Shown here: in pieces, positions 1-63,153 of the stretch
Position numbering within the stretch: position 1 is the first letter of the stretch
How the letters are laid out: the number at the start of each line of letters is the position of its first letter
DNA from: Sphaerochaeta sp. Phil3
GTDB taxonomy: Bacteria > Spirochaetota > Spirochaetia > Sphaerochaetales > Sphaerochaetaceae
Assembly: GCA_001940825.1 (NCBI GenBank)
Contig: MSGT01000061.1
Span: forward strand, 1,887-65,886
Length of the DNA stretch: 64,000 nt
Direction of reading: 5' to 3'
Notes under the pieces: generated by a model
What the model saw: only the letters and a program-made list of their open reading frames with translations
Told to the model about the DNA's origin: nothing
Database searches by the model: none
Program-made: the position numbers and the translations under genes

Positions 1-407
1 CATCATTGCTTATTTTGAGCTTAATGGATTCGTAGACATCACTGTCCTCGCTTATTCCGAAAATATGTGAGTACTTGAATTTTGCTTTTCTTATTCCACT
101 ATATAGAATTCGACTGTTTACGCTTGAATTGCGACCTCTTGCAATACTTGAAAAACTCCCCATGGACTGTAGGTCAACAGTCAATTGAGGAGATTTCACA
201 TACGTTCCTTTTCCCTGCATTCGTATTACAATGCCATCACGTTCCAAAACATCCAGGGCTTTGCGTACTGTGAAATGGCTGACGCCATAGTGTGTTGCTA
301 TGGTTCTCTCTGAAGGTAAGCTGTCTCCCATAGCATACTCGCCGGAATAGATTTTGTTTTTTAGAGTATCAGCAAGCTGTGTGTATAGTGGCGAAGTTCT
401 TTTCAAA
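1..407 (-). CDS. GntR/HutC-family transcriptional regulator (N-terminal part; gene runs off the window start)
   Basis: Own minus-strand translation from TTG at 407: (M)KRTSPLYTQLADTLKNKIYSGEYAMGDSLPSERTIATHYGVSHFTVRKALDVLERDGIVIRMQGKGTYV, a GntR winged-HTH signature, followed by a UTRA-like region. AAGGGG lies just upstream. It is absent from the ORF track because it is truncated. Confidence 0.7.
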
Positions 408-430
408 CAGAGGTACCCCTTTGTATGTAT

Positions 431-453
431 ATGTATAGGACTTGTCTATACAT
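431..453. promoter_or_regulatory. Candidate GntR-family operator: inverted repeat ATGTATAG-N7-CTATACAT
   Basis: Read directly: 431-438 ATGTATAG and 446-453 CTATACAT. It lies in the divergent region between the GntR gene and the catabolic operon. It contains the GT...AC core typical of GntR/HutC operators. Confidence 0.4.
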
Positions 454-604
454 AGTTTGGATTGTACAGGATTATGTAGACTTTGCAAACTGGCGGTCAT
501 GGATTTAGACAATAATTCCACTGCATGGTTTTTGTCATAGGGTTTCATTGACTCTCTATCAAAAGATGGGCCGAAGACGGCCCGATGACCCTATTAAAAA
601 ACAA

Positions 605-634
605 TTGACAAACGTATATTGCAAGAGGTATGTT
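605..634 (+). promoter_or_regulatory. Candidate sigma-70 promoter of the catabolic operon
   Basis: TTGACA at 605-610, an 18-bp spacer, then TATGTT at 629-634, about 80 bp upstream of the ATG at 716. Confidence 0.35.
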
Positions 635-715
635 AAAAACAACAAGTGTTATGGGATATATGCATGCTATGCATGATTGGCATTGTGTGCTATTCACGAA
701 ACAAAAGGAGGAAAA

Positions 716-1612
716 ATGGCATCATATATGAATCCCCAAAAGATGATTGAATGGTGCAGCATCCCTGCAGAACAATTGGAAAGGCATCCAAATTCAAAGG
801 TAAAGCTTAGGATTCTTGAAAAAAAAGAAGTTTCGAAAAGAGCTGCCGATATGATGATTGAGGAAGTTGTTTCTAACAATGCTGAGGGGAAACCAACGAA
901 ATGGGTGCTTCCTGCAGGGCCAATGGGGCAGTATAAGTATTTTGCAGAAAGGGTCAATGCGGAGCGTATTAATCTGAAGGAAGTGTATGTTTTTCATATG
1001 GATGAATTCCTTGATTGGCAAGGGCGTCCATACCCAGTGGTCAACAACTACTTCAGTCTTAAGGCGAATATGATTCATGATTTCTACGGGCTTATCGATG
1101 ATGATTTGAATATTCCGGAGGATCACCGTATATGGCCTGATATCAATGACATCGATTATCTGGACAGGAAGGTTGAAGAGCTAGGTGGCGTTGATACTGT
1201 TTATGCCGGTTTGGGGTATAAAGGCCTTGTCGCTTTTTGCGAAGCCCCTAATTCTCCATATTACAGTGTAGGCGTTGAGGAATATGCTGAATCAAAGACT
1301 CGAATTGTTCATTTGAATGAGGATACTCTAATTTCCCTCAGCGAACGGGATATCGGTGGATTCGTTCAAATTGTCCCTCCTATGGCGGTTACCATTGGTT
1401 TCAAGTCCATGTTAACGGCGAAAAAGGCGGTTTTCATGGTTACAACCGGCAGTTGGAAGCAGACTTCGATTCGGGTGCTGATGTTCAGCGAGCCCACAGT
1501 GGAATATCCTGCAACGCTGTTCCCCGAATACATTCCAGAAGTTGTGGTCCTGACAGATAGTGCAACAGCGCAGCCGCCTATCGTTGATGGCATTTTTACA
1601 GAGGTTAAGTGA
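716..1612 (+). CDS. Glucosamine-6-phosphate deaminase/isomerase (NagB) family protein
   Basis: ATG at 716 preceded by AAGGAGG (705-711). Motifs VFHMDEF, GLGYKGLVAFCE and PMAVTIGFKSMLTAKKAVFMVTTG resemble the NagB/Pgl-fold signatures. Confidence 0.75.
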   Translation: MASYMNPQKMIEWCSIPAEQLERHPNSKVKLRILEKKEVSKRAADMMIEEVVSNNAEGKPTKWVLPAGPMGQYKYFAERVNAERINLKEVYVFHMDEFLDWQGRPYPVVNNYFSLKANMIHDFYGLIDDDLNIPEDHRIWPDINDIDYLDRKVEELGGVDTVYAGLGYKGLVAFCEAPNSPYYSVGVEEYAESKTRIVHLNEDTLISLSERDIGGFVQIVPPMAVTIGFKSMLTAKKAVFMVTTGSWKQTSIRVLMFSEPTVEYPATLFPEYIPEVVVLTDSATAQPPIVDGIFTEVK

Positions 1613-1613
1613 A

Positions 1614-2570
1614 ATGGCAAAGATCCCTCAGATAATTGTTTGCAATGGGCATGGCCTTGGTGAGTATTGCGATGTAAAGCGCATTCCAAATCCAGGTGAA
1701 ACTTGTATCGCATATAATCGTCGATTTGAGATGGACGCAGGCAAAGGTACCAATGCAGCTTGTGCCATTGGAAGGCTTGGTGGGAGCGTTGCCTTCGTGG
1801 GCAAGTGTGGCGTTGATCAATGTGGTGAGCTTGGATACAAGTGGATGGGAGAGTCCAATGTGGACACTACCTACTACTGGTTGGATCCATCCATCGAATC
1901 CTGTTTGGGACTATGCATCATAGCTGAAAACGGCGAGAACATGCTACTTGATTTTGACAATGACATATGTGGCGTCCAACCGGATGAAGTGGATCGTTGC
2001 ATTCGTAAAATGACGGGTGCCAAGTATGTGATAGCTGGATTCGCACAGGCCGTGGAATCTGGTCTCCAAGCCTGCCGAACCGGTAAGGAACTCGGCATGA
2101 CAACCCTTCTCAATCCCAGCCCTCTGCGTGTAGGTATGAAGCTCGAGCGCATGCCTTATGTCGATTATCTTGTGGTGAATGAAGGCGAGTCCTATGAGTT
2201 GTTGGGTATCGACGACAAAGAGGATCTTGGTTGGGAGAAATTAGGACGTCTTCTTATTGAGAAGTACGGATGTTCCAACATAGTCATGACTCTTGGTGGT
2301 AAGGGCTCTGCTGCCGTCACTGCCGATGAGGCCTTCATGTGTCCAGGTGTCAAAGTTGAAATGGTGGATGAAACTGGTGCCGGAGATGGCTTTCTTGGTG
2401 CAATAACCTATTGCATGAATGAAGGCAAGACCCTCAAGGAAGCAATGGCATGGGCAAATGTCTATGCTGCATATACCGTTACCAAACAAGGTTCACTTGA
2501 ACACTATCCATGGAAAGCCCAGATCCCTTCGATATTCAAGGATCTTGGAAGGGCGGATCTTCTGTTCTGA
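1614..2570 (+). CDS. PfkB-family carbohydrate kinase (ribokinase-like) 1
   Basis: Start MAKIPQ at 1614, just after the upstream stop. Carries the PfkB signature VDETGAGDGFLGA. Paralogous to 3525..4487 (IIVCNGHGLGEYCDVKRIPNPGET versus VVCINGNGIGQCCNVVRIPKKGET). Confidence 0.8.
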   Translation: MAKIPQIIVCNGHGLGEYCDVKRIPNPGETCIAYNRRFEMDAGKGTNAACAIGRLGGSVAFVGKCGVDQCGELGYKWMGESNVDTTYYWLDPSIESCLGLCIIAENGENMLLDFDNDICGVQPDEVDRCIRKMTGAKYVIAGFAQAVESGLQACRTGKELGMTTLLNPSPLRVGMKLERMPYVDYLVVNEGESYELLGIDDKEDLGWEKLGRLLIEKYGCSNIVMTLGGKGSAAVTADEAFMCPGVKVEMVDETGAGDGFLGAITYCMNEGKTLKEAMAWANVYAAYTVTKQGSLEHYPWKAQIPSIFKDLGRADLLF

Positions 2571-2594
2571 ATTAAAACAAAAAAGGAGTTTAAT

Positions 2595-3512
2595 ATGGCA
2601 AAATACTTTAACGGTATCATTTCGGAGCCAATGATTTCCTATCACAAGGATGGCTCGATTGATTTTGATGTTACTCATGACCTCTTCAAGAATCTAGCTA
2701 TGAGAGGTGCTAGCGGCTTGTTCGTTAATGGATTTGGAGATGAAACCTATTCTTTGTCCCTTGAAGAGCGTCTTGAAGTCGTCAAATGTGCACAGGAAGC
2801 AGTCAAGGGGACTGATTGCCTGATTGTTGCAGTTGTGTTGGCGAATTGTCTCAGAGATGCGTTGTGGTTGGTAAAGGAATACAGAAAGCTGGATGTTAAA
2901 GCAATGTCCATCTCTTTGCCCCCATTTTACCAGCTTACCCAAGAGGCTGCCCATCAGTACTTGAGTGCTCAGTTGGAGGCTGCTCCAGATGTTCCTATGT
3001 TGGCTTTCAACTGTCGTGAGATGAACGAGCTGTTTACTCCCGAGATGCTTGGAAGACTGGCTCATGAGTATCCTAATCTGAGAGGCTATAAGGATGCAAC
3101 TCGTGACATAATCCATCTGAATAAGTGCATAGATGCATTGGACGACCTAAAAGATGACTTCAGCATCATTTCCGGTTCGGATGCAACGTTGTTTACCCAT
3201 ATGGCTATGGGTGCTTCCGCTTCTGTAAGTTTCATGAGCGTTCCTTTCCTCGATCAGATGAAAGACATCTATGATTACTTCAAGGCTGGCGAGTACGAGA
3301 AGGCTTGGCAGGCGCAGCGTATAGTGTTGAAACTACGTACATTCATGCAACAGTTTCCTGATTCCGCTGCATATATCTATGCAATGAAATACACCGCTTG
3401 TGTGAACGTCCAAGGTACACGGCACCCTGACCATATGCTTTACATCCCAGAGGAAGAGCTTAGGAAGTTTGATGAAATGGTCAAGGAATTCGGCATTACA
3501 AAGAGATATTGA
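2595..3512 (+). CDS. DHDPS/NanA-family class I aldolase/lyase
   Basis: GLFVNGFGDETYSLSLEERLEV and YKDATRD (candidate Schiff-base Lys) match the dihydrodipicolinate synthase / N-acetylneuraminate lyase family. AGGAG lies upstream. Confidence 0.75.
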   Translation: MAKYFNGIISEPMISYHKDGSIDFDVTHDLFKNLAMRGASGLFVNGFGDETYSLSLEERLEVVKCAQEAVKGTDCLIVAVVLANCLRDALWLVKEYRKLDVKAMSISLPPFYQLTQEAAHQYLSAQLEAAPDVPMLAFNCREMNELFTPEMLGRLAHEYPNLRGYKDATRDIIHLNKCIDALDDLKDDFSIISGSDATLFTHMAMGASASVSFMSVPFLDQMKDIYDYFKAGEYEKAWQAQRIVLKLRTFMQQFPDSAAYIYAMKYTACVNVQGTRHPDHMLYIPEEELRKFDEMVKEFGITKRY

Positions 3513-3524
3513 TTCGAGGCCAAT

Positions 3525-4487
3525 ATGGGACATATTCCAAAAGTAGTGTGCATTAATGGTAATGGCATAGGACAATGCTGCAACGTGGTCCGCATTCCTA
3601 AAAAAGGAGAAACCGCTATACCAACCAACCTTCATTATTGCAAGGATTCCGGCAAGGGCGTCAATTGCGCGATAGTGATTGGACGTCTTGGAGGAGATGT
3701 GTCTTACATTGGTAAGGCCGGCAAGGACGATGGTGGTGAACTGAACGAGCAGTGGCTTCAGGAGTCAGGGGTTCATTTGGAGCATTTCTGGTTGCAGGAT
3801 GGTATAAAAACCAGCCTGGGTCTTATCCTGGTAGCGGAGAACGGCGAGAATTTGATATTCAACTTTGATTCACCTGAATCTGACATAACCGTTGAAGAGG
3901 CTGTTTCCCATTTGAAGGAACTCAAAGGCGCGGAATACATGATTACAGGTTTTGAAATACCTCATTCCGTAGCATATGAAAGTGCAAGGGTCGGTTGCGA
4001 GCTGGGTATGAAGGTTTTCATCAATCCAAGTCCTTTCGATGATGCTTCTGAAGTTGTCGAGATGCCTTTTGTCGATACCATGGCTGTCAATGAAATAGAG
4101 GCTTTGATGCTCCTTGGTACAACGAAGGAAGAAACAAACGACTGGATGGATGCCGCAAAGCGACTATGTGAAAAGTACAAAGTAAAGAACGTTCTCATAA
4201 CACTTGGTGGAGATGGCGCTGTCCATTACGGAGAAAGGGGCCTAGGACATGTATCTGGAATCAAAGTCAAGGTGGTTGATGAAAGCGGTGCGGGAGATGC
4301 CTTCTTGGCTGTTTTTGTGCAGTGCCTTATCTGGGGTATGTCTGTGCAAGAGGCTCTTGAGTACTCCAACAAATATTGCGCATGGCTTGTCCAAAAGCCA
4401 GGTGAGGACGGAGTCATTGGCAAGTATCTCTATCTTAACGAAATGAAAGAGGTTTTGGATTTCTTTGAATCAAAGGAGGAAAAATGA
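3525..4487 (+). CDS. PfkB-family carbohydrate kinase 2
   Basis: VDESGAGDAFLAVF signature and overall collinearity with kinase 1. Confidence 0.8.
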   Translation: MGHIPKVVCINGNGIGQCCNVVRIPKKGETAIPTNLHYCKDSGKGVNCAIVIGRLGGDVSYIGKAGKDDGGELNEQWLQESGVHLEHFWLQDGIKTSLGLILVAENGENLIFNFDSPESDITVEEAVSHLKELKGAEYMITGFEIPHSVAYESARVGCELGMKVFINPSPFDDASEVVEMPFVDTMAVNEIEALMLLGTTKEETNDWMDAAKRLCEKYKVKNVLITLGGDGAVHYGERGLGHVSGIKVKVVDESGAGDAFLAVFVQCLIWGMSVQEALEYSNKYCAWLVQKPGEDGVIGKYLYLNEMKEVLDFFESKEEK

Positions 4488-5314
4488 AGATTTCTTTTTT
4501 CACAAACAGTCTTCATAGATGGCCTATAGAAAAGAGCTTTGAAGTAGCCTCTAAGTTCGGCTATGACGGTATTGAAATATGGGGAGGTCGTCCTCACGCT
4601 TATGCCCCCGATATGAGGCCTGAGGATATCCAAAAAATCAAGGATCTTTCTGCGAAGTACAATCTTCCTATAGTGTCATTTGAACCGGAAATGGCTTGTT
4701 TGCTATGGAGGGATCAGAGATGGATCGATGAAAGCATGGAGTATTTCCGACAATGCATCGATTTTTGCAAAGCCATAGGTTGTCCTTACATGGTTATGGC
4801 GGCACTTCAGTGCAGTTATGAATACAGCACTGATGAAGATTGGGCGCAATTCATCAAATACATGAAGGAACTCGCTGCCTATTCGGAGTCTGTTGATGGC
4901 GTGACGATGATTCTTGAGACCGTTACTCCTTGGGAAGGCAATATCCTTATACGATCCGATGACACAGTCAGAGCACTCAAAGAGATAAATAGTCCAAAGG
5001 TCAAAGCTATGTTGGATTTGGCTGCCCCTCTTACTGTAGGGGAACCGTCTTCAAATTACTTTGAAAAGCTCGGCAAGGATTTGGTCCATGTTCATCTTGT
5101 TGATTGCAAAAAAGACGTTGAGGATCATCTGATCCTTGGAGATGGAGAGCTTCCAGTGGAAGAGGTCCTCTCAATGTTGGATTCGTATGGATACGACGGG
5201 TATTGCTCCGTAGAGCTTTTTGATGAGTATCGCACTGAACCTATTTTGTTCAATCAACGTGCAATCAGAGCGATTAGACAATCGCTTGAGAACGTTGGGT
5301 TGAAACAAGGTTGA
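4484..5314 (+). CDS. Sugar phosphate isomerase/epimerase (xylose isomerase-like TIM barrel)
   Basis: ATGA start/stop overlap with the upstream kinase. The N-terminus KISFFTNSL...FGYDGIEIWGGRPH is typical of the AP-endonuclease-2 / xylose-isomerase-like TIM barrel family. Confidence 0.7.
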   Translation: MKISFFTNSLHRWPIEKSFEVASKFGYDGIEIWGGRPHAYAPDMRPEDIQKIKDLSAKYNLPIVSFEPEMACLLWRDQRWIDESMEYFRQCIDFCKAIGCPYMVMAALQCSYEYSTDEDWAQFIKYMKELAAYSESVDGVTMILETVTPWEGNILIRSDDTVRALKEINSPKVKAMLDLAAPLTVGEPSSNYFEKLGKDLVHVHLVDCKKDVEDHLILGDGELPVEEVLSMLDSYGYDGYCSVELFDEYRTEPILFNQRAIRAIRQSLENVGLKQG

Positions 5315-5342
5315 CTGCATTGTGCAAAAAAGGAGGAATTGA

Positions 5343-6845
5343 ATGCAGAAAAAAATGACTCGTGGAAATATCAAGAACATAATAGCATACGCTTTTCTTG
5401 CAATATGTTTCTTGGTGATAGGCTTGTTCTGCCCTGTTTTGGAGGAAGGGGAGAACTATAAGGTTTGGACTTTGATCCCGCCAGCGGCAATCTTCGTGTT
5501 TATCGTTTTGACAAGTAGAATTGTCGAAGGTTTCGTATTGACTGCCATATTGACCGTATTCATCAAATATCGCAGTGGCTTTGTAGGAGGATTTGTAGAG
5601 TCTATTACGGCTAACGTTACTAATCCTGACGGCTTTTGGGTTCTGTTCCTGTTTATGCTGGGTGGTATGGTTACTGTTCTCTTTAAGATCAGTGGAGCCG
5701 GGACATACTTCGCTCGTTGGATAGCGAAAAAGGCCAAGAGCAGTAAAATTGCTTTGTTCATGGCATCTTTGCTGTGCATACCCCTTGCCGTTGATGACTA
5801 CACAAGTACACTTGTCGTAGGGAACTGTATCACTCCTTTGACCGATGAGTTCAAGGTTCCTCGGGAGATGACTGCATATGTTCTGCGTGCTAGCTCGGCA
5901 AACCTTTCCACTCTTTTGCCTATAGGGGCTTGGGCTATTTACATTGGTGCTGTCATTGATATGTGGGGTTTGGATGTTGTCGGCAACCAAACTGGTTTGA
6001 TGTACTTCTTTACCAAGTGTCTCCCTTTCTGCTTCTTTCCAATTGTCTGTCTGCTCATGTGCTGGTTGATTATTGGTGGAGTCATAAAGCCGTTTGGAAA
6101 GATGAAGGAAGCGTTTCAACGTGTCGAGAATGGGGGCTCCGTTGTCCCTGAAGCAAAGCCTCGCTATATAGATGGTGTCTTGCAGGAACCTCCTGCACCA
6201 GAACCTGCCCCTGAACCAAGAGCGAAGGTCAACTTGACCCATTTTATCGTCCCTGTAGTCGCAATACTTGCATTTGGTTATGCATTTGAATGGGACATGA
6301 CATATGGATTGACTTGGGGGTTGATTACCTCTTTTGTGTATTACATCATCACTGGAGTATTTGCTCCAATAGACGCAGCTGATGTTATTACAGAAGGTCT
6401 TTCCTCCATGTCTGTTATGTGTACCATGTGTACCTGTGGCTTGGTTATTTGCAACGGATTAGCTGAACTTGGATTCGTTGAATATGTTGTTGACGTTGTC
6501 AGTCAACTTGTATCCCCAACCTTCCTACCTCTTATCATCTTCATTGCATTCTCCTTGACTGAAATGCTTGTCACTTTCAACTATACATTGTATTTGATAG
6601 CAATGCCCATTGTCGTTGGTATTGCCGTCAACGTTGGTGCGAACGTTCCTTTGGCTATTGCTGCGCTTGTTTCTGCTGGACTTTGGGGATACCAGACTGC
6701 GTTCTCCTCTGATGGTGGAATGCTTGCCTGTGCGGCATGTGGCGGTATTGATCTAATGGATCAGACTTTCTCCCAATACAAGATAACGGTTGTGTGTTGG
6801 ATTATATCAGCAGTGCTTTTCGCAGTCTTCGGAATTATTTTGTAA
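5343..6845 (+). CDS. NhaC-family membrane transporter
   Basis: 500-aa polytopic protein. TLIPPAAIFVFIVLTSRIVEGFVLTAIL resembles the conserved N-terminal helix pair of Na+/H+ antiporter NhaC-type carriers. Confidence 0.6.
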   Translation: MQKKMTRGNIKNIIAYAFLAICFLVIGLFCPVLEEGENYKVWTLIPPAAIFVFIVLTSRIVEGFVLTAILTVFIKYRSGFVGGFVESITANVTNPDGFWVLFLFMLGGMVTVLFKISGAGTYFARWIAKKAKSSKIALFMASLLCIPLAVDDYTSTLVVGNCITPLTDEFKVPREMTAYVLRASSANLSTLLPIGAWAIYIGAVIDMWGLDVVGNQTGLMYFFTKCLPFCFFPIVCLLMCWLIIGGVIKPFGKMKEAFQRVENGGSVVPEAKPRYIDGVLQEPPAPEPAPEPRAKVNLTHFIVPVVAILAFGYAFEWDMTYGLTWGLITSFVYYIITGVFAPIDAADVITEGLSSMSVMCTMCTCGLVICNGLAELGFVEYVVDVVSQLVSPTFLPLIIFIAFSLTEMLVTFNYTLYLIAMPIVVGIAVNVGANVPLAIAALVSAGLWGYQTAFSSDGGMLACAACGGIDLMDQTFSQYKITVVCWIISAVLFAVFGIIL

Positions 6846-6864
6846 ATTGTACAAACGAATTGTA

Positions 6865-6902
6865 GAATTTGGCGCAGTGATGTTCTTCACTGCGCCAAAT
6901 TC
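6865..6902 (+). promoter_or_regulatory. Intercistronic 16-bp perfect stem-loop (attenuator, RNA-stability element or weak terminator)
   Basis: GAATTTGGCGCAGTGA (6865-6880), loop TGTTCT, TCACTGCGCCAAATTC (6887-6902). No T-tract follows. Confidence 0.5.
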
Positions 6903-6919
6903 AAATAGGAGGATAGATT

Positions 6920-8035
6920 ATGGCTGCTAGATTTTCGCTAAGGCCTGTTATGTTTGACGAAACCAAGAGACCGTTGCTAAATGATTCACCATTTACAGCC
7001 AATGTTTTCAAATATGAATCTGGAGTTGAAGCTATAGAGTTTAGTAATGGACCGGTTGTTTGCATCGTTCTCCCGTATCAAGGACAACAAGTATGGCGTC
7101 TATTTATAGATGGGGAGAACATGACCATGAAGTCAATGTATGAGAGTCCTGAGAGCACTGACGATGTTTTCAATTTCAGTTATGGGGGATTTCTTATTCA
7201 CTGTGGATTGACCGCTATGGGCAACCCTTCCGAGGAAGATGATCATCCAATGCATGGGGAACTTCCACACGCCAAATACAGGAACGTATATGTAGAAGTC
7301 GGAGAAGACGGTAAGGGACGGTATGTTTCTATAGGTGGAGATTATATCTACAAACTCTCAATCGATACCGGGTATGTATTCAGTCCAGAACTTCGTTTGT
7401 ATGAGGGCTCAAGGTTGGTTGAGGTATCAGGCCATATAAAGAACCTTCGTGCAAGTACTTTCAACTACATGTACATGGCTCACATAAACTGGCTGCCAAT
7501 CAACGGATCGCGTTTGGTATATAGTACACCCAAAGATAATCAGCATATCGAGGTTTGTCGCGAGGATTTTGGGGACATTCTAGATGGAGAAGAGGCCAAG
7601 CGGCTCGATGCTTATACAAGTCGGCTGCAGAAAAACCCAAGCCTAGCCGATGTCATTGATTTTGAAACTCAATGTTATAATCCTGAATTGTGTTCTATCA
7701 TGCATTATAGGTCTGATGAAAAAGGATGGGCTCATTCAATGCAGATTCGTCCTGATCAGACTTCCTGCTATGTTGGGTTTGACACTAGTATTCTCTGTAA
7801 TGGGTTGAGGTGGTTTAGCTGGACGGAGGATGAACGTTCCTGTGGATTCGCTCTTCCGAATACCGGCAACCAGAGGGGTAGGGCCTATGCTATAAAAAAC
7901 GGGCTAATGAAAAAACTTCCTGGATACGGGGAAGCGCTACTTAGATATCGTTTCGGTAAACTTGGTCCTATGGAAACCGTCGAGATGGAGAACAGAATAA
8001 ACTCTATTCTTAAGAACTGCGGACAAAAGTCGTAG
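6920..8035 (+). CDS. DUF4432 / aldose-1-epimerase-like protein
   Basis: 371 aa. YGGFLIHCGLTAMGNPSEEDDHPMHGELPH and the overall pattern recall the DUF4432 galactose-mutarotase-like family. AGGAGG lies upstream. Confidence 0.6.
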   Translation: MAARFSLRPVMFDETKRPLLNDSPFTANVFKYESGVEAIEFSNGPVVCIVLPYQGQQVWRLFIDGENMTMKSMYESPESTDDVFNFSYGGFLIHCGLTAMGNPSEEDDHPMHGELPHAKYRNVYVEVGEDGKGRYVSIGGDYIYKLSIDTGYVFSPELRLYEGSRLVEVSGHIKNLRASTFNYMYMAHINWLPINGSRLVYSTPKDNQHIEVCREDFGDILDGEEAKRLDAYTSRLQKNPSLADVIDFETQCYNPELCSIMHYRSDEKGWAHSMQIRPDQTSCYVGFDTSILCNGLRWFSWTEDERSCGFALPNTGNQRGRAYAIKNGLMKKLPGYGEALLRYRFGKLGPMETVEMENRINSILKNCGQKS

Positions 8036-57176: not shown

Positions 57177-57962
57177 TCAGTAGGTGAGTGTGCCGGCGGC
57201 ATCCCTCATGAGGAGCTCGGCGACGAAACGGGTGACCTCCGGACGCGCAGCATCCGAGATGTCCTCAAGGGCGGCCTTTGCGAGCTGGAAGATGGAGACC
57301 TGCTTCTGGATGGGGACCACCTTGGTCGTGTCCTTCTCATAGGCCTTGCAGAGGCGCATGTATGTCCTCGGATCGGCGTTGTAGGATCCGATGCGCTCTG
57401 CAAGGGTCTCGAGATAGGGCTGGTCGAAGAGCCAGATCTGGCCGCCTTCGTCTATGTACTGGTCAAAGCTGTCAGCCATGGCTATGCGGTTGAGCTCGGC
57501 GGCCCGGAGCTCCTTCTGGTAGCGGGCCTCGAAGGCCTTGATCCAGCCTTCCGGGCGCCAGGAGGAGTCTCCGATATGCTCCACCACCAGCTGGAGAAGC
57601 TCCCGATAGCGTTGCTCCAGAAGGTCCTTTGCCTCTTCAACCGTCAGAAGACGGTCCTCCTCTGGGATGTAGAGGGCAAGCCAACGGTCGGCGGTACGCT
57701 TAACAAGGCCGATGTCGTTGCAATAACCTTCCCATGTTAAAGGTGTTAACCTTGGGACATTTGTCCCGAAGTCTGCATTTGAAGCATCTGAGATACGGTT
57801 TTTGTCGCTCCTGTATCCTTGACACGACAATGCTTCATGTGCTGCATACAGCTCGCGGACAAGGTCCAGACTGACCTTTTTGAAAGCAGAAACAAGGTCT
57901 TTTGTTCTCTCAACTGATTTTTCATAGTTCCAGGGTTCCAACACAGTCAATTCGTTTGCCAT
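57177..57962 (-). CDS. First early-operon protein, function unknown (compositionally chimeric)
   Basis: Start MANELTV at 57962 after GGAGAA. The 5' ~240 nt are about 43 % GC and the rest about 66 % GC (my counts of 57721-57840 and 57481-57600). Confidence 0.55.
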   Translation of the reverse strand: MANELTVLEPWNYEKSVERTKDLVSAFKKVSLDLVRELYAAHEALSCQGYRSDKNRISDASNADFGTNVPRLTPLTWEGYCNDIGLVKRTADRWLALYIPEEDRLLTVEEAKDLLEQRYRELLQLVVEHIGDSSWRPEGWIKAFEARYQKELRAAELNRIAMADSFDQYIDEGGQIWLFDQPYLETLAERIGSYNADPRTYMRLCKAYEKDTTKVVPIQKQVSIFQLAKAALEDISDAARPEVTRFVAELLMRDAAGTLTY

Positions 57963-58007
57963 TGGTTCTCCTTGAACTCCAAAATGGAGTAGTGTAATAT
58001 GGGGTAA

Positions 58008-58103
58008 GGTTATTTTTAACCCTAATTTAGAATAAATCTGAAATGGATTATTTGTCAACTCCTATTTGGATTTTTTGAATTTAAAAATCTATTTAAGATT
58101 TTT
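58008..58103. promoter_or_regulatory. Immunity-region operators between the divergent early operon and the repressor
   Basis: Palindromes GGTTA-TTTT-TAACC (58008-58021) and AAAAATCT-ATTTA-AGATTTTT (58083-58103). Further AAATC/GATTT half-sites lie at 58034-58038 and 58069-58075. Confidence 0.5.
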
Positions 58104-58117
58104 TTGAGGTGCTATAT

Positions 58118-58804
58118 ATGTTGAGGCTAAAGGAAGTTCGCGAATCGACAAAACTGTCACAGAAGGCATTTGGATCCTCGTTGGGTTTATCTCAGGGTAC
58201 ATATCAGAAATATGAATCCGGAATGGCGTCATTTCCCGATGACCTCAAAGCCCAACTGGCCGACAAATACGGCATCAACCTTCACTGGCTCATCACCGGT
58301 CAGGGGTCGATGCATATAGGGGAGAACCCGGAGACATCGGCCTTCACGCATGCGCGCGCGAATGATGATATAAGGGAGGACGTGCTGAAGGACAGCGTGG
58401 TCGTGGCAATGACAAGCCTCCGTGTCAGTGCCGGCCCGGGGCAGGACTGGTCGGAGGCGGATGTGACGGGCGAGAAGCTGTGCATCCCCAAGCGCGTGGC
58501 CAGACGATATCCCCGGAACTCGGACTTCGCCGGGGCCCAGGTGGTGGGGGACAGCATGGAACCGACGCTGCATGACGGCGAGCCTGTGGTGTACGTGCGC
58601 GAGTTCATCCAGGGCGACGGCATCTACGTGCTGGCTGTCAACGGGGAGCTGCTGGTCAAACGGCTGCAGTTCGACAGGATCTTCAACAGGCTCCACATCA
58701 TCAGCGACAACACCAAGTACCGGCCTGTGGAGATCCCGCTGGAGGGGCTGGACAACGTCCGGATCCTGGGCAAGGTTGTCATCTGGGTGCACGGTGAGGT
58801 GTGA
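58118..58804 (+). CDS. Prophage repressor, XRE-type HTH + S24 (LexA/CI-like) autopeptidase domain
   Basis: LRLKEVRESTKLSQKAFGSSLGLSQGTYQKYESG is the HTH. GDSMEPTLHDGEPVVY...LVKRL is the Ser-Lys dyad. ATG at 58118 after GAGG. Confidence 0.85.
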   Translation: MLRLKEVRESTKLSQKAFGSSLGLSQGTYQKYESGMASFPDDLKAQLADKYGINLHWLITGQGSMHIGENPETSAFTHARANDDIREDVLKDSVVVAMTSLRVSAGPGQDWSEADVTGEKLCIPKRVARRYPRNSDFAGAQVVGDSMEPTLHDGEPVVYVREFIQGDGIYVLAVNGELLVKRLQFDRIFNRLHIISDNTKYRPVEIPLEGLDNVRILGKVVIWVHGEV

Positions 58805-58863
58805 TAGTGGATTTTCTCTTTGCCTTAGCTTATTATAGGTCTCACAGAGATTGGAGGTGAACC

Positions 58864-60405
58864 ATGGTTGATTATTCCAAATGGAAGATCAGTAACGAAA
58901 TACCTGTAACAGAGGTTAAACTAGATAAACTTAACCCCAGAATGCCTGAGAACTCAGAGTCCCTGACGCAAGAAGACATTTTGAATTTGATGGTCAATGA
59001 CTACAAGATAATAGAGCTTGCAGAATCAATCGCAATGAAAGGTTTTATGCCTTTGGACAATATGGTCATAACATATGAGGATGGCATTCCTGTGGTTCTG
59101 GAGGGAAACAGAAGAGTTGCTGCATTGAAACTGTTAATCAATCCTGCTATGGCCCCTATTAAGGAAAGACCAAAATATGAAGCTTTAAGTGCCCAGATTG
59201 ACGTATCGATGATCATGAATCCAAACTTTGCTATTGCTCCAAACCGGGAAGCTGCAAGCCCACTGATTCTTGACAGGCATACAGTTGCAACAGAGATTCC
59301 GTGGTCTTCAATTATGCAGGCGGAATTTCACCGTGATATTCTTCGAAAGCGAGGACTTGAAATCCCGACCAAAGAAGTTCTTGAGGAATTCAATCTTAAA
59401 GAGAAGGAGATGACGGATTCACTTTTAAGGCTGGATATATATGAGAAGGCGTGTTCATTTTCTTATCCTTCCTCTTCGATTGATCGGAAAGTGAAAGACA
59501 AACTTAGTTTTGAAATTACAACTCTTGAAAGACTCGTCAATCCTTCAATCAGCCAAAAGCGTTTCAAATACAGGATTTCCAATGGAAAATTGACAGTTCT
59601 AGATGAAGCCTTGTTCAATGCATTTCTCAGATCGGTTGTTATCCATATGTATGAGCCGATTGAAGGTCTCCAGAGAATCACTTCCAGAAGTGCCAATAAA
59701 ACCGAGCAGATTGATAAGTACCTCAGAGCTATAAGACATGAAATCATAACAGCTGCTTCAAGAGACGAGACTTCAGATGAACAGGAAGGACAACCGGCAG
59801 ATAATGATGATAATTATTCTGACAAGAATATATCCGAACCTGTTGAAATAGCCACTGGGGAGGGAGAGTCAAACAGAATAGTTCCATCTGGAAGTTCAAG
59901 ACGGCAACCCAAGCGAAGAACAGTTCATTCTAATGAATTGAGATTCGAATACAGTTCTCCCGCCAATCAGCGCATATATGATGAGCTTGGAAGACTATCC
60001 GTCAAAGATGCGCCATCATGTGCAACAATAGCCATAAGGGTTCTGTTGGAACGAACAATAAAATCCTACCTTAGACGAATGAAAAAGAGGACGGTTCCTG
60101 TTACAACTGACGGAAATAAGAAAAAAGTCCCAATTGCAGATGCAACATTTGGCGATATTATAGACTGGATAACTCAAGATGATTCCGATATTGTATTGGA
60201 TCCAGAAATCAGAAGAAGCTTGAAGAAGTTCAAACGAGCAGAAAACTCAAATATACTCTCATTGAGTATGCTGAATGCTGTTATTCATGAACAATTTCAG
60301 GTTATCTATAAGGATAGTGTATTTGCCATCTGGGATAATCTTGCACCCATATTGGAATATTTTATGAATCGACCGGAAACAAACGCAGAAAGTATGGCCA
60401 TCTAG
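58864..60405 (+). CDS. ParB/Srx-fold N-terminal domain protein with acidic linker and unassigned helical C-terminal domain
   Basis: LDKLNPR...LAESIAMKGFMPLDNMVITYEDGIPVVLEGNRRVAALKLL is the ParB N-terminal GxxRxxA arginine patch. Then a DETSDEQEGQPADNDDNYSD linker, then a C-terminal ~155 aa containing LSMLNAVIHEQF. About 40 % GC. Confidence 0.7.
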   Translation: MVDYSKWKISNEIPVTEVKLDKLNPRMPENSESLTQEDILNLMVNDYKIIELAESIAMKGFMPLDNMVITYEDGIPVVLEGNRRVAALKLLINPAMAPIKERPKYEALSAQIDVSMIMNPNFAIAPNREAASPLILDRHTVATEIPWSSIMQAEFHRDILRKRGLEIPTKEVLEEFNLKEKEMTDSLLRLDIYEKACSFSYPSSSIDRKVKDKLSFEITTLERLVNPSISQKRFKYRISNGKLTVLDEALFNAFLRSVVIHMYEPIEGLQRITSRSANKTEQIDKYLRAIRHEIITAASRDETSDEQEGQPADNDDNYSDKNISEPVEIATGEGESNRIVPSGSSRRQPKRRTVHSNELRFEYSSPANQRIYDELGRLSVKDAPSCATIAIRVLLERTIKSYLRRMKKRTVPVTTDGNKKKVPIADATFGDIIDWITQDDSDIVLDPEIRRSLKKFKRAENSNILSLSMLNAVIHEQFQVIYKDSVFAIWDNLAPILEYFMNRPETNAESMAI

Positions 60406-60429
60406 GACTAAAAATGAGATAATAGGTTT

Positions 60430-61284
60430 ATGTTCAGATCTACGTCACCTTTGCGATATCCTGGCGGAAAGCAGAAAATGGCTCCGTATCTCAAGCAGAT
60501 AATTAGGCTGAACAGGCTTGATGATGGTCTGTATGCGGAGCCATATGCAGGTGGGGCTGGGTTGGCTTTGGATTTACTGTTTTCTGAGAAAATATACTAT
60601 CTCCGTTTGAATGATGCTGATTCCAACATCTTTTCATTTTGGCAGAGTGTACTTGAAGAGACTGAAGCCTTGTGTGACTTGATTATGGGGACTCCTGTCA
60701 CCATTGAAGAATGGGAAAAGCAGAGGACAATCCTGAATGACAAATCTGCAAGCAGGGATCTTAATCATGGTTTCGCAACTTTTTTTCTCAATCGATGTAA
60801 TCGGTCGGGGATTCTAAAGGGTGGACCAATAGGCGGAAAAAACCAGACAGGGAAATGGAAGATAGATGCAAGGTTCAACAAGGTGGAGCTTGTCAAACGA
60901 ATCAGAAAGATTTCCTATTACAAGACCCGCATCAAGATATTCAATCTCGATGCGCTGGATTTTCTGAATGAGATAAAGCCTGATCTGTCTTCTCATCCGT
61001 CACTGATATATCTTGATCCTCCTTATTATCAGAAAGGGCCAGATCTTTATCTGAATGCATATGGGCCTGATGACCACAGAAAGGTGGCCGAGTTCATGAA
61101 AGGGGAGTTTCGAAACTACAATTGGATTATCTCATATGACAACTGTAATCAGATTGCAGAGCTATACAGTGATTTACGATGTTCCCGCCAAATCCTGAAC
61201 TACAGTGTCTCTTCCAAACCTAAAAGAGGTGAAGAGCTGGTCTTTTTCTCTCCATCTCTGAAGGTTCCGCAGGAGAGTACATGA
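60430..61284 (+). CDS. D12-class (Dam-family) N6-adenine DNA methyltransferase
   Basis: RYPGGK, EPYAGGAG (SAM loop) and LDPPY (catalytic motif IV). It lies 24 bp after the ParB-like gene. Confidence 0.85.
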   Translation: MFRSTSPLRYPGGKQKMAPYLKQIIRLNRLDDGLYAEPYAGGAGLALDLLFSEKIYYLRLNDADSNIFSFWQSVLEETEALCDLIMGTPVTIEEWEKQRTILNDKSASRDLNHGFATFFLNRCNRSGILKGGPIGGKNQTGKWKIDARFNKVELVKRIRKISYYKTRIKIFNLDALDFLNEIKPDLSSHPSLIYLDPPYYQKGPDLYLNAYGPDDHRKVAEFMKGEFRNYNWIISYDNCNQIAELYSDLRCSRQILNYSVSSKPKRGEELVFFSPSLKVPQEST

Positions 61285-61307
61285 TAAGACAGAAAGTGTC
61301 TGAATAT

Positions 61308-61334
61308 TACCCAAAAATACCGAATACTACCGAA
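61308..61334. repeat. Three helically phased TACC(C/G)AA repeats
   Basis: TACC starts at 61308, 61318 and 61328, an exact 10-bp spacing. Confidence 0.6.
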
Positions 61335-61382
61335 AAACATCTGGTTTTAACTTGACCTGGGAAATTTTTACCCTTGGAAATC

Positions 61383-61412
61383 TTGACGAATCCGGATTCA
61401 TGAACTAATAAT
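61383..61412 (+). promoter_or_regulatory. Candidate sigma-70 promoter for the DUF3800 leader
   Basis: TTGACG at 61383-61388, an 18-bp spacer, then AATAAT at 61407-61412. Confidence 0.5.
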
Positions 61413-61419
61413 ATAAACG

Positions 61420-61522
61420 CAGGTACACGTTACGCTGTATACCCGGGTAACCGAACGTGAGTTTAAGCGTCATGTAATGGCGCCGGCCCCGGGGAGGGAA
61501 CCGCCTTAGGGCGGTTTTCCTT
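61420..61522 (+). ncRNA. Candidate structured 5' leader / DUF3800-associated RNA element ending in a terminator-like hairpin
   Basis: P1 pairs 61427-61436 with 61466-61475. Palindrome TACCCGGGTA at 61440-61449. GC block GGCGCCGGCCCCGGGG at 61479-61494. Hairpin AACCGCC-TTAG-GGCGGTT at 61499-61516, followed by TTCCTT. Confidence 0.4.
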
Positions 61523-61538
61523 ATGTATGGGGTCTTGA

Positions 61539-62234
61539 GTGAACATTTTCGTCTATTCTGATGAGTCCGGAGTATTTGATAGATTGCATAATGATCTCTT
61601 TGTCTTTGCCGGTCTGATTATTCTTTCTTCCTCAAGCAAAGAGGAATGGTCCAGAAGGTATTCTGCGGCGGAAAGAAGAATCCGGATTGCCGGGAAATAC
61701 GAAAAAGGCCAAGAGCTGAAAGCCTCGTTTGTTACCAACGGCGAGAAGCTTGAGTTGTATAAGGCTCTGAACGGTTGTTACAAATTCGCTGTAGTGGTTC
61801 GGCAGCAGAGACTTCTCAAATCGATTTTCGATTCAAAGAAAGACAAGCAAAGATATTTGGATTATGCATACAAGATAGGGGTCAAACGAGCACTGGAACA
61901 GTTGATTGAGAAAGGAATCATCAGATCTGAAGAAGTCGAGAACATGTATTTCTTCGTCGATGAACATACTACCGCAACCAATGGCTGCTATGAGCTGAAA
62001 GAGGCTTTGGAACGGGAATTCAAAAACGGAACATACAACTACAACTGGGACAAGTTCTTTCCTCCGATATTTCCTTCCGTCAAGACCGTGAATCTTGAGT
62101 ACTGCAATTCCTCCACCAAAATATTGGTTAGGGCGGCAGATGTCGTAGCCAACCGTATTTTCTATCTCGCAAAAAACAGTCTTCTTAATACTCTTTGTGA
62201 TGCAAAGGTGTTGTTGTCCTCATTGCCTTATTGA
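61539..62234 (+). CDS. DUF3800-family protein
   Basis: GTG start. N-terminal IFVYSDESG (DES motif) and ~230 aa size match my recollection of DUF3800. About 40 % GC. Confidence 0.6.
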   Translation: MNIFVYSDESGVFDRLHNDLFVFAGLIILSSSSKEEWSRRYSAAERRIRIAGKYEKGQELKASFVTNGEKLELYKALNGCYKFAVVVRQQRLLKSIFDSKKDKQRYLDYAYKIGVKRALEQLIEKGIIRSEEVENMYFFVDEHTTATNGCYELKEALEREFKNGTYNYNWDKFFPPIFPSVKTVNLEYCNSSTKILVRAADVVANRIFYLAKNSLLNTLCDAKVLLSSLPY

Positions 62235-62287
62235 TTGAGATTCCCTTTTTATTCCTCTTGGTAAAGTGATACCAGGAGGGTTTTCTT

Positions 62288-62653
62288 ATGTCATACATTG
62301 CAACGAAACTCGTGATACTGGTACCGATCCTGAACTCTCTGGGTCAAGTGATCAAGAAATGGCTCTTCCCGGATGATCCTAAGAGAACTCCGAAGCTGCC
62401 CAAGCTCAGGGCGGTGTTCCTCAGGCTCTTCCCATCGAAGAAACGCATATCGATACTCATCCTCTCACTGGCTTTCATGTTCTCCACAATCTGGGGCTTC
62501 GTGCAATCGACGTACTCAGGCTGGAGGCTTGTGGTCGATGCGGTGGTGTATTTCGGCCTTCTGCAGGGCCTTCTGGTCGGCTTGTCCGCCATGGGTGCGT
62601 TCGATACCGTCCATGCCTTCAGAAAGACAGGGAAGGAGGAGGCCGGTGAGTGA
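62288..62653 (+). CDS. Putative holin-like membrane protein (three TM segments, charged C-terminus)
   Basis: Hydrophobic segments IATKLVILVPILNSLGQVI, ISILILSLAFMFSTIWGFV and VVDAVVYFGLLQGLLVGLSAMGAF, with tail RKTGKEEAGE. AGGAGGG lies upstream. It is the first GC-normal gene after the cargo island. Confidence 0.4.
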   Translation: MSYIATKLVILVPILNSLGQVIKKWLFPDDPKRTPKLPKLRAVFLRLFPSKKRISILILSLAFMFSTIWGFVQSTYSGWRLVVDAVVYFGLLQGLLVGLSAMGAFDTVHAFRKTGKEEAGE

Positions 62654-63153
62654 GAACTTCAGGGAGACTTTCAAGGCCGTCCTTCTGGCGGTTCTGGTTG
62701 TGCTGTTTCTTCCTCTTGTGCTTGTGTGCTGCATCCTTGTGGGCAGAAGATCTTCCGGATCCGGCGACGATGACAGAGGATCAGATATTGTCGGAGCTGG
62801 AGAGTCTGTTGGCAGAGCAGCTGACGACGTCTCTGGAGCGGCAGGACAGTCTGCAGAACTTGCAGACGAAGTTGCAACAGTCGCAGCTGCAGCTGGAGAG
62901 TCTGCAGAATCAGCTGAGGACATTGCAAGACAGCTCCATGACACTGAAGAGCAGCTTGTCCGCCTTGAGTCTGGACTTGGACAGGATATCAACAGGATTG
63001 AGAGACTCAAGCAGCTTGCTGCTGAGCTTAGGAGAAGATATCAAGAAAGAGTCAGCCAGGGCCAGAACCCGTGAGACCGTGCTGATCAGCATATGCGGAG
63101 TGTCTTTAGGTGCGGTGCTGGTCATGCTTGTGGCGGGTTTCATCAGCAGGTGA
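62650..63153 (+). CDS. Signal-peptide / coiled-coil / C-terminal TM protein (spanin-like topology)
   Basis: GTGA start/stop overlap with the holin-like gene. Leu/Gln heptad region, then C-terminal helix VLISICGVSLGAVLVMLVAGFI. Codons are almost all G/C-ending, as in neighbouring late genes. A competing frame is treated in findings. Confidence 0.5.
   Translation: MRTSGRLSRPSFWRFWLCCFFLLCLCAASLWAEDLPDPATMTEDQILSELESLLAEQLTTSLERQDSLQNLQTKLQQSQLQLESLQNQLRTLQDSSMTLKSSLSALSLDLDRISTGLRDSSSLLLSLGEDIKKESARARTRETVLISICGVSLGAVLVMLVAGFISR

Follow-up and report, generated by a model that had tools for sequence, protein, structure and literature searches.

The 64,000-nucleotide stretch of DNA analysed here (the window) comes from Sphaerochaeta sp. 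Phil3 (assembly GCA_001940825.1, contig MSGT01000061.1, positions 1,887 to 65,886 of the forward strand) and contains a low-GC island of three genes behind a prophage repressor. An earlier reading made from the sequence alone, without database searches (hereafter the sequence-only reading), had proposed this island to be an undescribed three-gene immunity module expressed in the lysogen. We consider it highly probable that the island instead combines two separate units in the cargo slot of a Mu-like phage: a PD-lambda-5 cassette (cassette 1), comprising gene 1 (protein A) and the methyltransferase gene 2 (protein B), and a cassette with a DUF3800-I RNA and a DUF3800 gene, gene 3 (cassette 2), which would operate by the mechanism laid out below. 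Judged by their profile matches, genes 1 and 2 are a further member of the named, experimentally validated and tool-detectable PD-lambda-5 system, and what is novel in the island would appear to lie in cassette 2 rather than in a three-gene unit.

Genes 1 and 2 as a PD-lambda-5 pair

Sequence profile searches with gene 1 recovered 25 PD-Lambda-5_A models of PADLOC (e.g. PDLC04017, E = 9.6e-45, residues 2-498 on positions 4-461 of the 473 in the profile, and PDLC03995, residues 14-502 on positions 16-499 of 503), whereas the same protein found no match in Pfam or NCBIfam, leaving PADLOC, PHROGs and structure comparison as the informative sources. Gene 2 matched PD-Lambda-5_B (PDLC04018, E = 3.1e-115, residues 1-282 on profile positions 1-278 of 291), which outscores the generic type II methyltransferase models (MTase_II) of PADLOC on this protein; oMTase models of the same library also match it, weakly. 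In PHROGs gene 1 falls into phrog_9592, a family without annotated function, and gene 2 into a DNA methyltransferase family. By its Pfam match (MethyltransfD12, PF02086, E = 3.9e-16, 60 bits against a cutoff of 22) and its intact catalytic motifs I (EPYAGGAG) and IV (DPPY), accompanied by YPGGK, gene 2 is a D12-class N6-adenine DNA methyltransferase, the activity of which is predicted. These motifs had been picked out in the sequence-only reading, as had LDKLNPR, VVLEGNRRVAALKLL and LSMLNAVIHEQF in gene 1, and all of them are present. That reading had correctly recognized the D12 and DUF3800 families and the defence-type character of the cargo; it had also called the system undescribed and mapped it to no named one, and had itself held that assignment by existing tools would set the proposal aside. 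PADLOC does assign genes 1 and 2 to PD-Lambda-5 (PMC9519451). Two further candidate assignments were rejected: orthology of gene 2 to Dam (TIGR00571, 55.1 bits, under the cutoff of 114.85), and a classical type I-III restriction-modification (RM) system, searches of genes 1 and 3 and the flanks with Pfam, NCBIfam and PADLOC having found no restriction endonuclease domain.

PD-lambda-5 was found by functional selection in Escherichia coli and is a validated anti-phage system, entered in Table S1 of its discoverers as 'ParB/HEPN, methyltransferase' (Vassallo et al. 2022, PMC9519451), an architecture at which the sequence-only reading had also arrived. The E. coli prototype protected against 9 of 10 phages, A and B alone were enough for this protection, and its cloning needed a delta-mrr host, implying an active methyltransferase (PMC9519451). 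No mechanistic follow-up on the system was found in the literature searched. The present pair shares with this prototype (ECOR7, RCQ13837.1 and RCQ13838.1) the order A then B, residence in a prophage, an A protein of about 450-530 aa that is ParB-like at its N-terminus and weakly DUF4145/HEPN-like at its C-terminus, and a D12 methyltransferase as B; it differs in its carriage by a Mu-like phage of a possibly Clostridia-type host and not of E. coli, its position directly behind the repressor, an acidic linker of about 45 residues and an identity of only about 20-25% to the proteobacterial members. With type II RM systems and the 'RM+Abi' hybrids it shares the combination of an obligate methyltransferase with a putative effector, the co-directional or convergent arrangement, mobility and low GC. 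It departs from type II RM systems in that A has no recognizable endonuclease fold, the partner of the methyltransferase being a ParB-type protein that binds nucleoside triphosphates (NTPs).

The gene neighborhoods of A were surveyed in 152 loci, 80 from one-genome-per-species references and 72 from IMG/VR, the open reading frames (ORFs) of which were scored with our own hidden Markov models (HMMs) for A, B and DUF3800; 143 of these loci have a full-length A. A D12 methyltransferase is directly adjacent to A in 142 of the 143 (111 co-directional, 31 convergent), that is in all 78 loci from reference genomes (69 co-directional, 9 convergent) and in 64 of the 65 viral loci (42 co-directional, 22 convergent), and the sole locus without one is cut off by the end of its contig. 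This adjacency is an obligate pairing, and the linkage to a methyltransferase for which the sequence-only reading had proposed to survey orthologues of gene 1 is present. In the loci of the three closest homologues of A (86%, 79% and 68% identity; L001-L003) B follows directly downstream throughout, and the third gene varies: a NYN gene in L001, a sister Mu-like phage; a 182-aa gene without assignment in L002, a chromosomal island with AAA_15/21 and DUF4917; and small ORFs and then an Abi_2 gene in L003, a chromosomal locus near SLFN/AlbA_2 and Cas3. Counted as representatives at 50% identity, the A family has 7612 members at E <= 1e-3 and 2406 at E <= 1e-30, most of those listed at the latter threshold being 450-530 aa long and matched over their full length. 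It occurs in Desulfobacteria, Chloroflexia, Saccharibacteria, Enterobacterales, Streptomyces, Mycobacterium, Bifidobacterium, Capnocytophaga, Prevotella, Pseudomonas and Mesorhizobium, as well as in a Thermoplasmata archaeon.

A variant and a possible relative of the pair occur as well. In L004 (6001-9970) and L005 two tandem paralogues of A precede the methyltransferase (A-A'-B), the inserted A' being a protein of 480 aa that matches PD-Lambda-5_A at E = 2.8e-79. The P2-like Escherichia phage vB_EcoM-12474III (L167; NC_049457.1, 5009-8045) carries beside its portal gene Q a trio in which a 'ParB N-terminal domain' protein of 372 aa and a hypothetical protein of 330 aa are joined by a DNA methyltransferase in convergent orientation. 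This trio could represent PD-lambda-5 in a split or shortened form, and several matches of 362-380 aa may belong to the same class. Within the present pair, a promoter-like sequence (60395-60423, TGGCCA-17-GATAAT, 9 of 12 matches, with the TG of an extended -10) overlaps the end of gene 1 a short way before the start of the methyltransferase gene and, if real, would allow B to be expressed apart from A, as in many RM systems.

Protein A and the proposed mechanism

The AlphaFold2 model of full-length A (mean predicted local distance difference test, pLDDT, 87.5) contains an N-terminal ParB-type NTP-binding domain with a helical middle domain, a linker predicted to be disordered and a helical C-terminal domain (Table 1). 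Foldseek searches with the N-terminal half recovered CTP- or CDP-bound ParB (7bnk, 6sdk), Noc and Spo0J (probability 1.0, E = 6e-4 to 3e-2), with 7ol9 and 1vz0 also among the ParB-type entries matched; the alignments extend up to about 300 columns and thereby take in both the NTP-binding domain and the helical domain that follows. A sequence profile of A gave a marginal match to Spo0J among the PDB sequences (4umk, E = 0.011). Gene 1 found no match to ParBc (PF02195) in Pfam at E <= 0.01, and 48 family members found none at E <= 0.1; the placement of A in the ParB/Srx superfamily derives from structure and from the published HHpred analysis of the prototype A (ParBc 96.4%, residues 6-89; DUF262 36.6%; DUF4145 35.6%, residues 388-418; HEPN_RiboL-PSP 8%; PMC9519451). 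In 144 diverse representatives of the family the residues N24, R26, G60, E80, G81, N82, R83, R84, H139 and W147 are 96-100% conserved, N24 and R26 mapping to the 'NPxQPR' region, G60 to box I and E80-R84 to box II (GERR in ParB); G81, R83 and R84 are invariant (100%) and align with the GERR of Spo0J.

This conservation supports an NTP-binding module of ParB type more than one of DndB or DUF262 type, and the HHpred result of the prototype points in the same direction. With the ParB, Noc and Spo0J clamps A shares the best structural matches and the NPR, box I and GxRR motifs; it is set apart from them by the lack of ParA, parS or any partition context, by GNRR in place of GERR, by the additional C-terminal helical domain and by the methyltransferase partner. 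DndB and the DUF262 proteins (GmrSD/BrxU) belong to the same superfamily and are likewise linked to defence based on DNA modification, but they are outside the top 50 Foldseek matches in PDB, and A has no HNH/DUF1524 nuclease domain. The ParB/Srx fold that the sequence-only reading had perceived at the N-terminus is borne out by Foldseek and the weak Spo0J profile match, and the Pfam searches it had proposed did recover MethyltransfD12 and DUF3800 and did not recover ParBc; its analogy to DndB and DUF262 is right as to superfamily and fits less closely than the true CTP-binding domains of ParB. The acidic linker it had noticed corresponds to residues 303-347.

The C-terminal domain, when modelled alone, attains a pLDDT of 87.6 and a predicted template modelling score of 0.84. 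Its sequence profile retrieved only noise from the PDB sequences. In both structure libraries searched with Foldseek, PDB and BFVD, a HEPN protein ranks first at non-significant scores, namely Csm6 (5yjc, E = 0.44, TM score 0.42) and a phage 'HEPN domain-containing protein' (E = 0.31), respectively. Permissive Pfam scans brought up sub-threshold DUF4145 matches in 4 of 48 family members, located on the helix bearing R392, and the weak DUF4145 region of the family is the same as that in the HHpred analysis of the prototype (388-418). Like the HEPN domains of Csm6, DUF4145 and Abi-associated proteins, this domain is small and helical with a conserved histidine; unlike them, it bears its invariant arginine (R392) on a different helix and lacks the Rx4-6H signature. 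At the position of the signature arginine the family always has a hydrophobic residue (L/M/F/I), followed by [N/D/H]-x3-H, and so the loss of the arginine that the sequence-only reading had remarked upon in a HEPN-like segment is a family-wide trait. Three polar residues on different helices, E374, R392 and H475, are 97-99% conserved in the 144 representatives, and this conservation argues for a functional site. The domain is accordingly best described as weakly HEPN-like, its membership in HEPN not being established.

We infer from these features a scheme of self versus non-self discrimination by adenine methylation, in which A would be both sensor and effector and the present copy would be expressed in the lysogen and active. 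B would mark the DNA of the lysogen by adenine methylation at a specific motif. A would be the restriction or abortive partner, built of a ParB-type NTP-dependent DNA-binding module, a disordered linker and a HEPN/DUF4145-like domain; it would engage incoming DNA that lacks the mark and block the infection, with either its C-terminal domain or the ParB domain itself as the acting part. Cassette 1 would be transcribed together with the repressor, and cassette 2 would be a self-contained unit of promoter, DUF3800-I RNA, terminator and DUF3800 gene.

Several observations weigh against this reading. The prototype protected less well against lambda-vir or T7 than against T-even phages (PMC9519451), a preference unusual for simple type II restriction, and simple type II logic should therefore not be assumed. 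An identity of about 20-25% to the proteobacterial PD-lambda-5 proteins makes an equivalent phenotype an extrapolation, and expression and activity of the present copy are predictions. The C-terminal domain found no significant Foldseek match in PDB or BFVD, the Rx4-6H signature is absent across the family (an arginine 4-8 residues before a histidine occurs in only 11 of 144 representatives), and no recognized DNase fold (PD-(D/E)xK, HNH or GIY-YIG) was found in A. In addition, the promoter calls are weak because the full scan yields no excess over shuffled sequence (12 sites against 8.1 +/- 2.9 expected).

A different division of labor within PD-lambda-5 deserves mention, and we hold it possible though distinctly the less favored: the ParB/Srx domain would itself be the effector, either as an NTP-regulated DNA nickase or nuclease or as an NTPase, giving direct RM-like immunity, and the C-terminal helical domain would merely regulate or multimerise, with neither HEPN-type RNA cleavage nor abortive infection. 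Nuclease and NTPase activities have been reported for ParB/Srx members (Maindola 2014 and RK2 ParB, as cited in PMC10853773 and PMC12839542), the strongest conservation of A is in its ParB domain, and the C-terminal domain has neither Rx4-6H nor a significant fold match. Against this stand the near-invariance of E374, R392 and H475, which suggests that they form an active site or belong to an interface that is essential, the first rank of a HEPN protein in both structure libraries, albeit non-significant, and the fact that the nearest ParB structures are CTP-dependent clamps and not nucleases.

Two cassettes in one slot and the DUF3800-I RNA

Cassette breakpoints were set by blastn. PD-lambda-5 loci outside phages align to the window from 58849/58853 through 61256/61268, and DUF3800 loci from 61371/61383 through 62196/62213; because these breakpoints separate the two, the island is to be viewed as two cassettes in one slot. 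The cassettes (about 58849-61284 and about 61371-62234) are independently mobile, each being found alone elsewhere. The nearest DUF3800 homologues (79-89% identity) are without A and B, in the sister phages L009 and L010 and in the chromosomal loci L011-L014. Conversely, our HMM detected no DUF3800 gene in any of the 152 A-type loci, nor within 5 kb in any of the 143 with full-length A; as this HMM derives from relatives that share at least 54% identity with gene 3, distant members could escape it. A Pfam search of the gene after B in 10 diverse loci likewise found DUF3800 in none, those genes being TIR_2, a permease, HD, HTH, a Mu-like protease I, DUF5675, a portal and three without assignment. 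Homology to L001, in which a NYN cassette is present, runs to 61412 of the window, and other DUF3800 cassettes begin to align at 61371-61383; some 40 nt with the promoter (61371-61412, corresponding to about 10497-10537 of L001) are thus common to the NYN and DUF3800 cassettes and may serve as a junction or recombination point at which cassettes are exchanged.

These neighborhoods bear directly on the unit proposed by the sequence-only reading, i.e. a single undescribed system in which a methyltransferase and a DUF3800 effector would accompany a ParB-fold sensor. The three genes are indeed adjacent, on the same strand and of a common low GC, and type VII retrons and some Cas12a2 loci have DUF3800 as an effector domain (PMC7736814, PMC10910872). 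However, the DUF3800 companion which that reading had expected is found in 0 of 143 loci with full-length A and 0 of 10 genes downstream of B, A and B being linked in 142 of 143; in the sister phage with 86% identity NYN stands in its place; the nearest DUF3800 homologues do without A and B; the homology breakpoints split the island; gene 3 comes with a promoter-like site, an RNA and a terminator of its own; and A and B sufficed for protection in E. coli (PMC9519451). A three-component system is consequently extremely improbable. Little more credence can be given to gene 1 being a core partition or replication ParB and gene 2 an orphan Dam-like methyltransferase that protects phage DNA or times replication, with no part in defence. 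The ParB fold of gene 1, the commonness of orphan D12 methyltransferases in phages and the weak oMTase matches of gene 2 would accord with such roles, but a ParA partner is lacking, and transposition is the way in which Mu-like phages integrate; the A-B pair is missing from L009 and L010 despite their having the same backbone, which speaks against a core function; the same pair occurs in non-phage defence islands, its adjacency in 142 of 143 loci extending over many phyla of bacteria and to at least one genome of an archaeon; a role in defence has been validated by experiment for the prototype; and gene 2 stays under the Dam cutoff of TIGR00571 (55 against 114.85 bits).

Turning to cassette 2, gene 3 encodes a DUF3800 protein by Pfam (E = 8.5e-10), with 1753 clusters of homologues; it matched no PADLOC model. 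In its family D8, E9, D141, H143, D201 and N205 are conserved, the N-terminal DE (D8, E9) being invariant. Between gene 2 and gene 3 lies a full-length match to the DUF3800-I RNA of Rfam (positions 1-115 of the 115 in the model), with a terminator-like hairpin within its 3' part (61496-61519), 20 nt before the GTG start of gene 3. The sequence-only reading had correctly attributed to gene 3 a promoter, albeit one that is a weak call, and a structured leader; the leader is a known Rfam family and not a new one. DUF3800-I RNAs were described as tied to DUF3800 genes and terminator-ended, and as neither riboswitches nor self-cleaving ribozymes, and their discoverers offered no hypothesis on function; they were placed on either side and in either orientation of the gene and rarely in 5' UTRs (Weinberg et al. 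2017, PMC5737381). The present element agrees with that account (RF02969, PF12686) in the full-length match, the 3' terminator hairpin and the adjoining DUF3800 gene. It differs in being prophage cargo and in its placement: the RNA ends 10 nt before gene 3, and in 19 of 19 loci examined it precedes the start codon of the DUF3800 gene by 9-28 nt and shares its strand. In L009 (1502-2317) and L010 (7001-7819) the public DUF3800 calls (271-272 aa) start inside the RNA (1497-1615 and 6996-7113, respectively), and the roughly 40 N-terminal residues added in this way are probably a mis-call, which hides the RNA from searches of intergenic regions.

In the literature DUF3800 has an RNase H-like fold, acts as effector in type VII retrons and is linked to some Cas12a2 loci (PMC7736814, PMC10910872). 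Tentatively, since it draws only on layout and context, the DUF3800-I RNA and the DUF3800 protein may be proposed as an autonomous RNA-controlled nuclease module, akin to a type III toxin-antitoxin system or an abortive-infection defence: the RNA would be made from a promoter of its own, its transcription would mostly stop short of the nuclease gene, and it would hold back or guide the DUF3800 nuclease. Type III toxin-antitoxin systems such as ToxIN consist of a promoter, a structured RNA, a terminator and a nuclease gene and are found on mobile elements. The resemblance of cassette 2 to ToxIN is one of layout only, in that its RNA is a single structured element and not a series of tandem repeats, and its protein has the RNase H-like fold of DUF3800 and is not ToxN. 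The type VII retrons (Mestre et al. 2020) likewise pair a structured non-coding RNA and a DUF3800 protein, and their context is of defence type too. A type VII retron was rejected for the present locus, there being no reverse transcriptase ORF or Pfam match in 57-64 kb.

Copies of cassette 2 occur in other settings too. In the chromosomal loci L011-L014 (e.g. L011, 4271-6863) they directly follow the gene of an AAA_15/AAA_21 ATPase (534-554 aa) with matches to the AriA, GajA and OLD models of PADLOC, and about 2.7 kb further downstream there is a PIN-domain gene in L011 and L012 and a PhdYeFM-type antitoxin gene in L011. In unrelated phages the cassette is found upstream of the portal gene (L169, 574-2693; L170, 1900-3995) or after an amidase endolysin (L175, 4759-6711), positions typical of accessory 'morons'. 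Between gene 2 and the promoter of the RNA the window has a direct repeat, TACCGAA-N3-TACCGAA (61318-61334), either a regulator site or a chance occurrence.

The prophage, its cargo slot and the place of the island in it

The carrier of the island is a Mu-like temperate prophage, the transposase of which resembles that of Faecalibacterium phage Mushu. Its host might be of Clostridia type, as suggested by this transposase and by the named relatives of gene 3, which come from Acutalibacteraceae, Lachnospiraceae and Pelotomaculum. The slot is a variable site between the S24 repressor and the lysis genes (Table 1). The repressor forms its left flank, outside the island, and has homologues in the sister phages L001 and L010; the holin/spanin-like flank is kept in synteny in L001, L009 and L010. 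A search of viral contigs for further sister phages with the 167-aa flanking gene as query found no match. Elsewhere the same slot is occupied by PD-lambda-5 with NYN (L001) or by an unrelated gene pair with DUF3800 (L009, L010), that pair encoding proteins of about 300 aa and 147-160 aa (L010, 5469-6768; L009, 2-1364) with no match in Pfam, PADLOC or PHROGs, in a slot where defence genes are otherwise carried.

Table 1. Features of the island and its immediate flanks (positions in the window)
Feature	Coordinates	Strand	Evidence or remark
Prophage repressor (HTH_3/HTH_19 + Peptidase_S24)	58109-58804	+	Pfam Peptidase_S24 2.7e-15, HTH_19 5.9e-09
Repressor-gene 1 spacer, 59 nt	58805-58863	+	GGAGGTG ribosome-binding site 7 nt before the gene 1 ATG
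Gene 1, PD-Lambda-5_A, 513 aa	58864-60405	+	PADLOC 9e-45, full length; phrog_9592 1.3e-46
A residues 1-302, ParB-type NTP-binding N-domain and helical middle domain			Foldseek, AlphaFold2
A residues 303-347, acidic linker	59770-59904	+	predicted disordered (AlphaFold2)
A residues 352-513, helical C-terminal domain	59917-60402	+	E374, R392, H475
Gene 2, PD-Lambda-5_B, 284 aa	60430-61284	+	PADLOC 3.1e-115; Pfam PF02086; PDB 7m6b 3.6e-11
Promoter-like TTGACG-18-AATAAT	61383-61412	+	10/12 matches; left edge of cassette 2, ends at start of RNA match
DUF3800-I RNA, Rfam RF02969	61412-61528	+	84.9 bits against gathering score 44.2, E 9.8e-13
Gene 3, DUF3800, 231 aa, GTG start	61539-62234	+	Pfam PF12686 39.9 bits against cutoff 21; phrog_30113 1.7e-74
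Terminator-like hairpin at island end	62253-62280	+	backbone homology back from 62263-62273
Right flank, lysis cassette (121-aa holin-like and 167-aa spanin-like genes)	62288-63153	+	PHROGs holin 1.8e-05, Rz-like spanin 9.6e-04

An ORF scan confirmed the three genes on the forward strand, separated by spacers of 59 nt (repressor to gene 1), 24 nt (gene 1 to gene 2) and 254 nt (before gene 3), and together with GC counts it agrees with the coordinates, strand, gaps and GC drop given in the sequence-only reading. GC is 0.658 at 57481-57600 and 0.637 in the 3' half of the repressor, falling to 0.400 at 58861-58980; it amounts to 0.413 over the whole island (58805-62287), 0.557 in the left phage backbone, 0.527 in the right flank and about 0.50-0.53 in the presumed host part of the window. 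In a 300-nt profile all windows of the island lie at 0.36-0.45 and those of the backbone at 0.50-0.65, rarely under 0.50. The GC boundaries coincide with the homology breakpoints near 58849 and 62263, in keeping with the earlier proposal of foreign cargo. Elsewhere in the window, positions 1-8000 have a GC of 0.43-0.46 against 0.50-0.53 in the remaining presumed host DNA and may be horizontally acquired.

The arrangement behind the repressor has a bearing on expression. Homology of cassette 1 to non-phage loci reaches only 11-15 nt upstream of the gene 1 ATG, which indicates that the cassette carries no promoter of its own. The scan found no terminator-like site in the spacer between the repressor and gene 1, and the spacer folds less stably than its own shuffles (z = +1.76), which bears out the hairpin-free spacer reported before. 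With neither a promoter of its own nor an intervening terminator, cassette 1 is most likely co-transcribed with the repressor, and repressor-driven expression in the lysogen is plausible on these grounds. Upstream of the repressor, an AT-rich divergent control region (57750-58200, GC 0.35-0.41) with promoter-like sites on both strands separates it (+) from the early operon (-), the first ORF of which (293 aa, 57177-58058, -) has no match in Pfam or PHROGs.

As a defence discovery the island matters little, PD-lambda-5 being a named, validated and detectable system and its family having thousands of representatives. It does document PD-lambda-5 in a Mu-like phage, in a place where it could ride on the repressor transcript, and the comparison across the family supplies constraints on the workings of A, namely the invariant residues of the ParB NTP pocket, the residues E374, R392 and H475, the absence of a canonical HEPN motif and the obligate methyltransferase. 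The occupants of the cargo slot, i.e. the DUF3800-I/DUF3800 and NYN cassettes and two gene pairs without a match in the libraries, are good candidates for new accessory functions. The more interesting item of the island is the cassette of DUF3800-I RNA and putative DUF3800 nuclease, in which the association is known and the function putative; if the proposal made for it above is true, it would provide a function for an RNA class that its discoverers left without a hypothesis.

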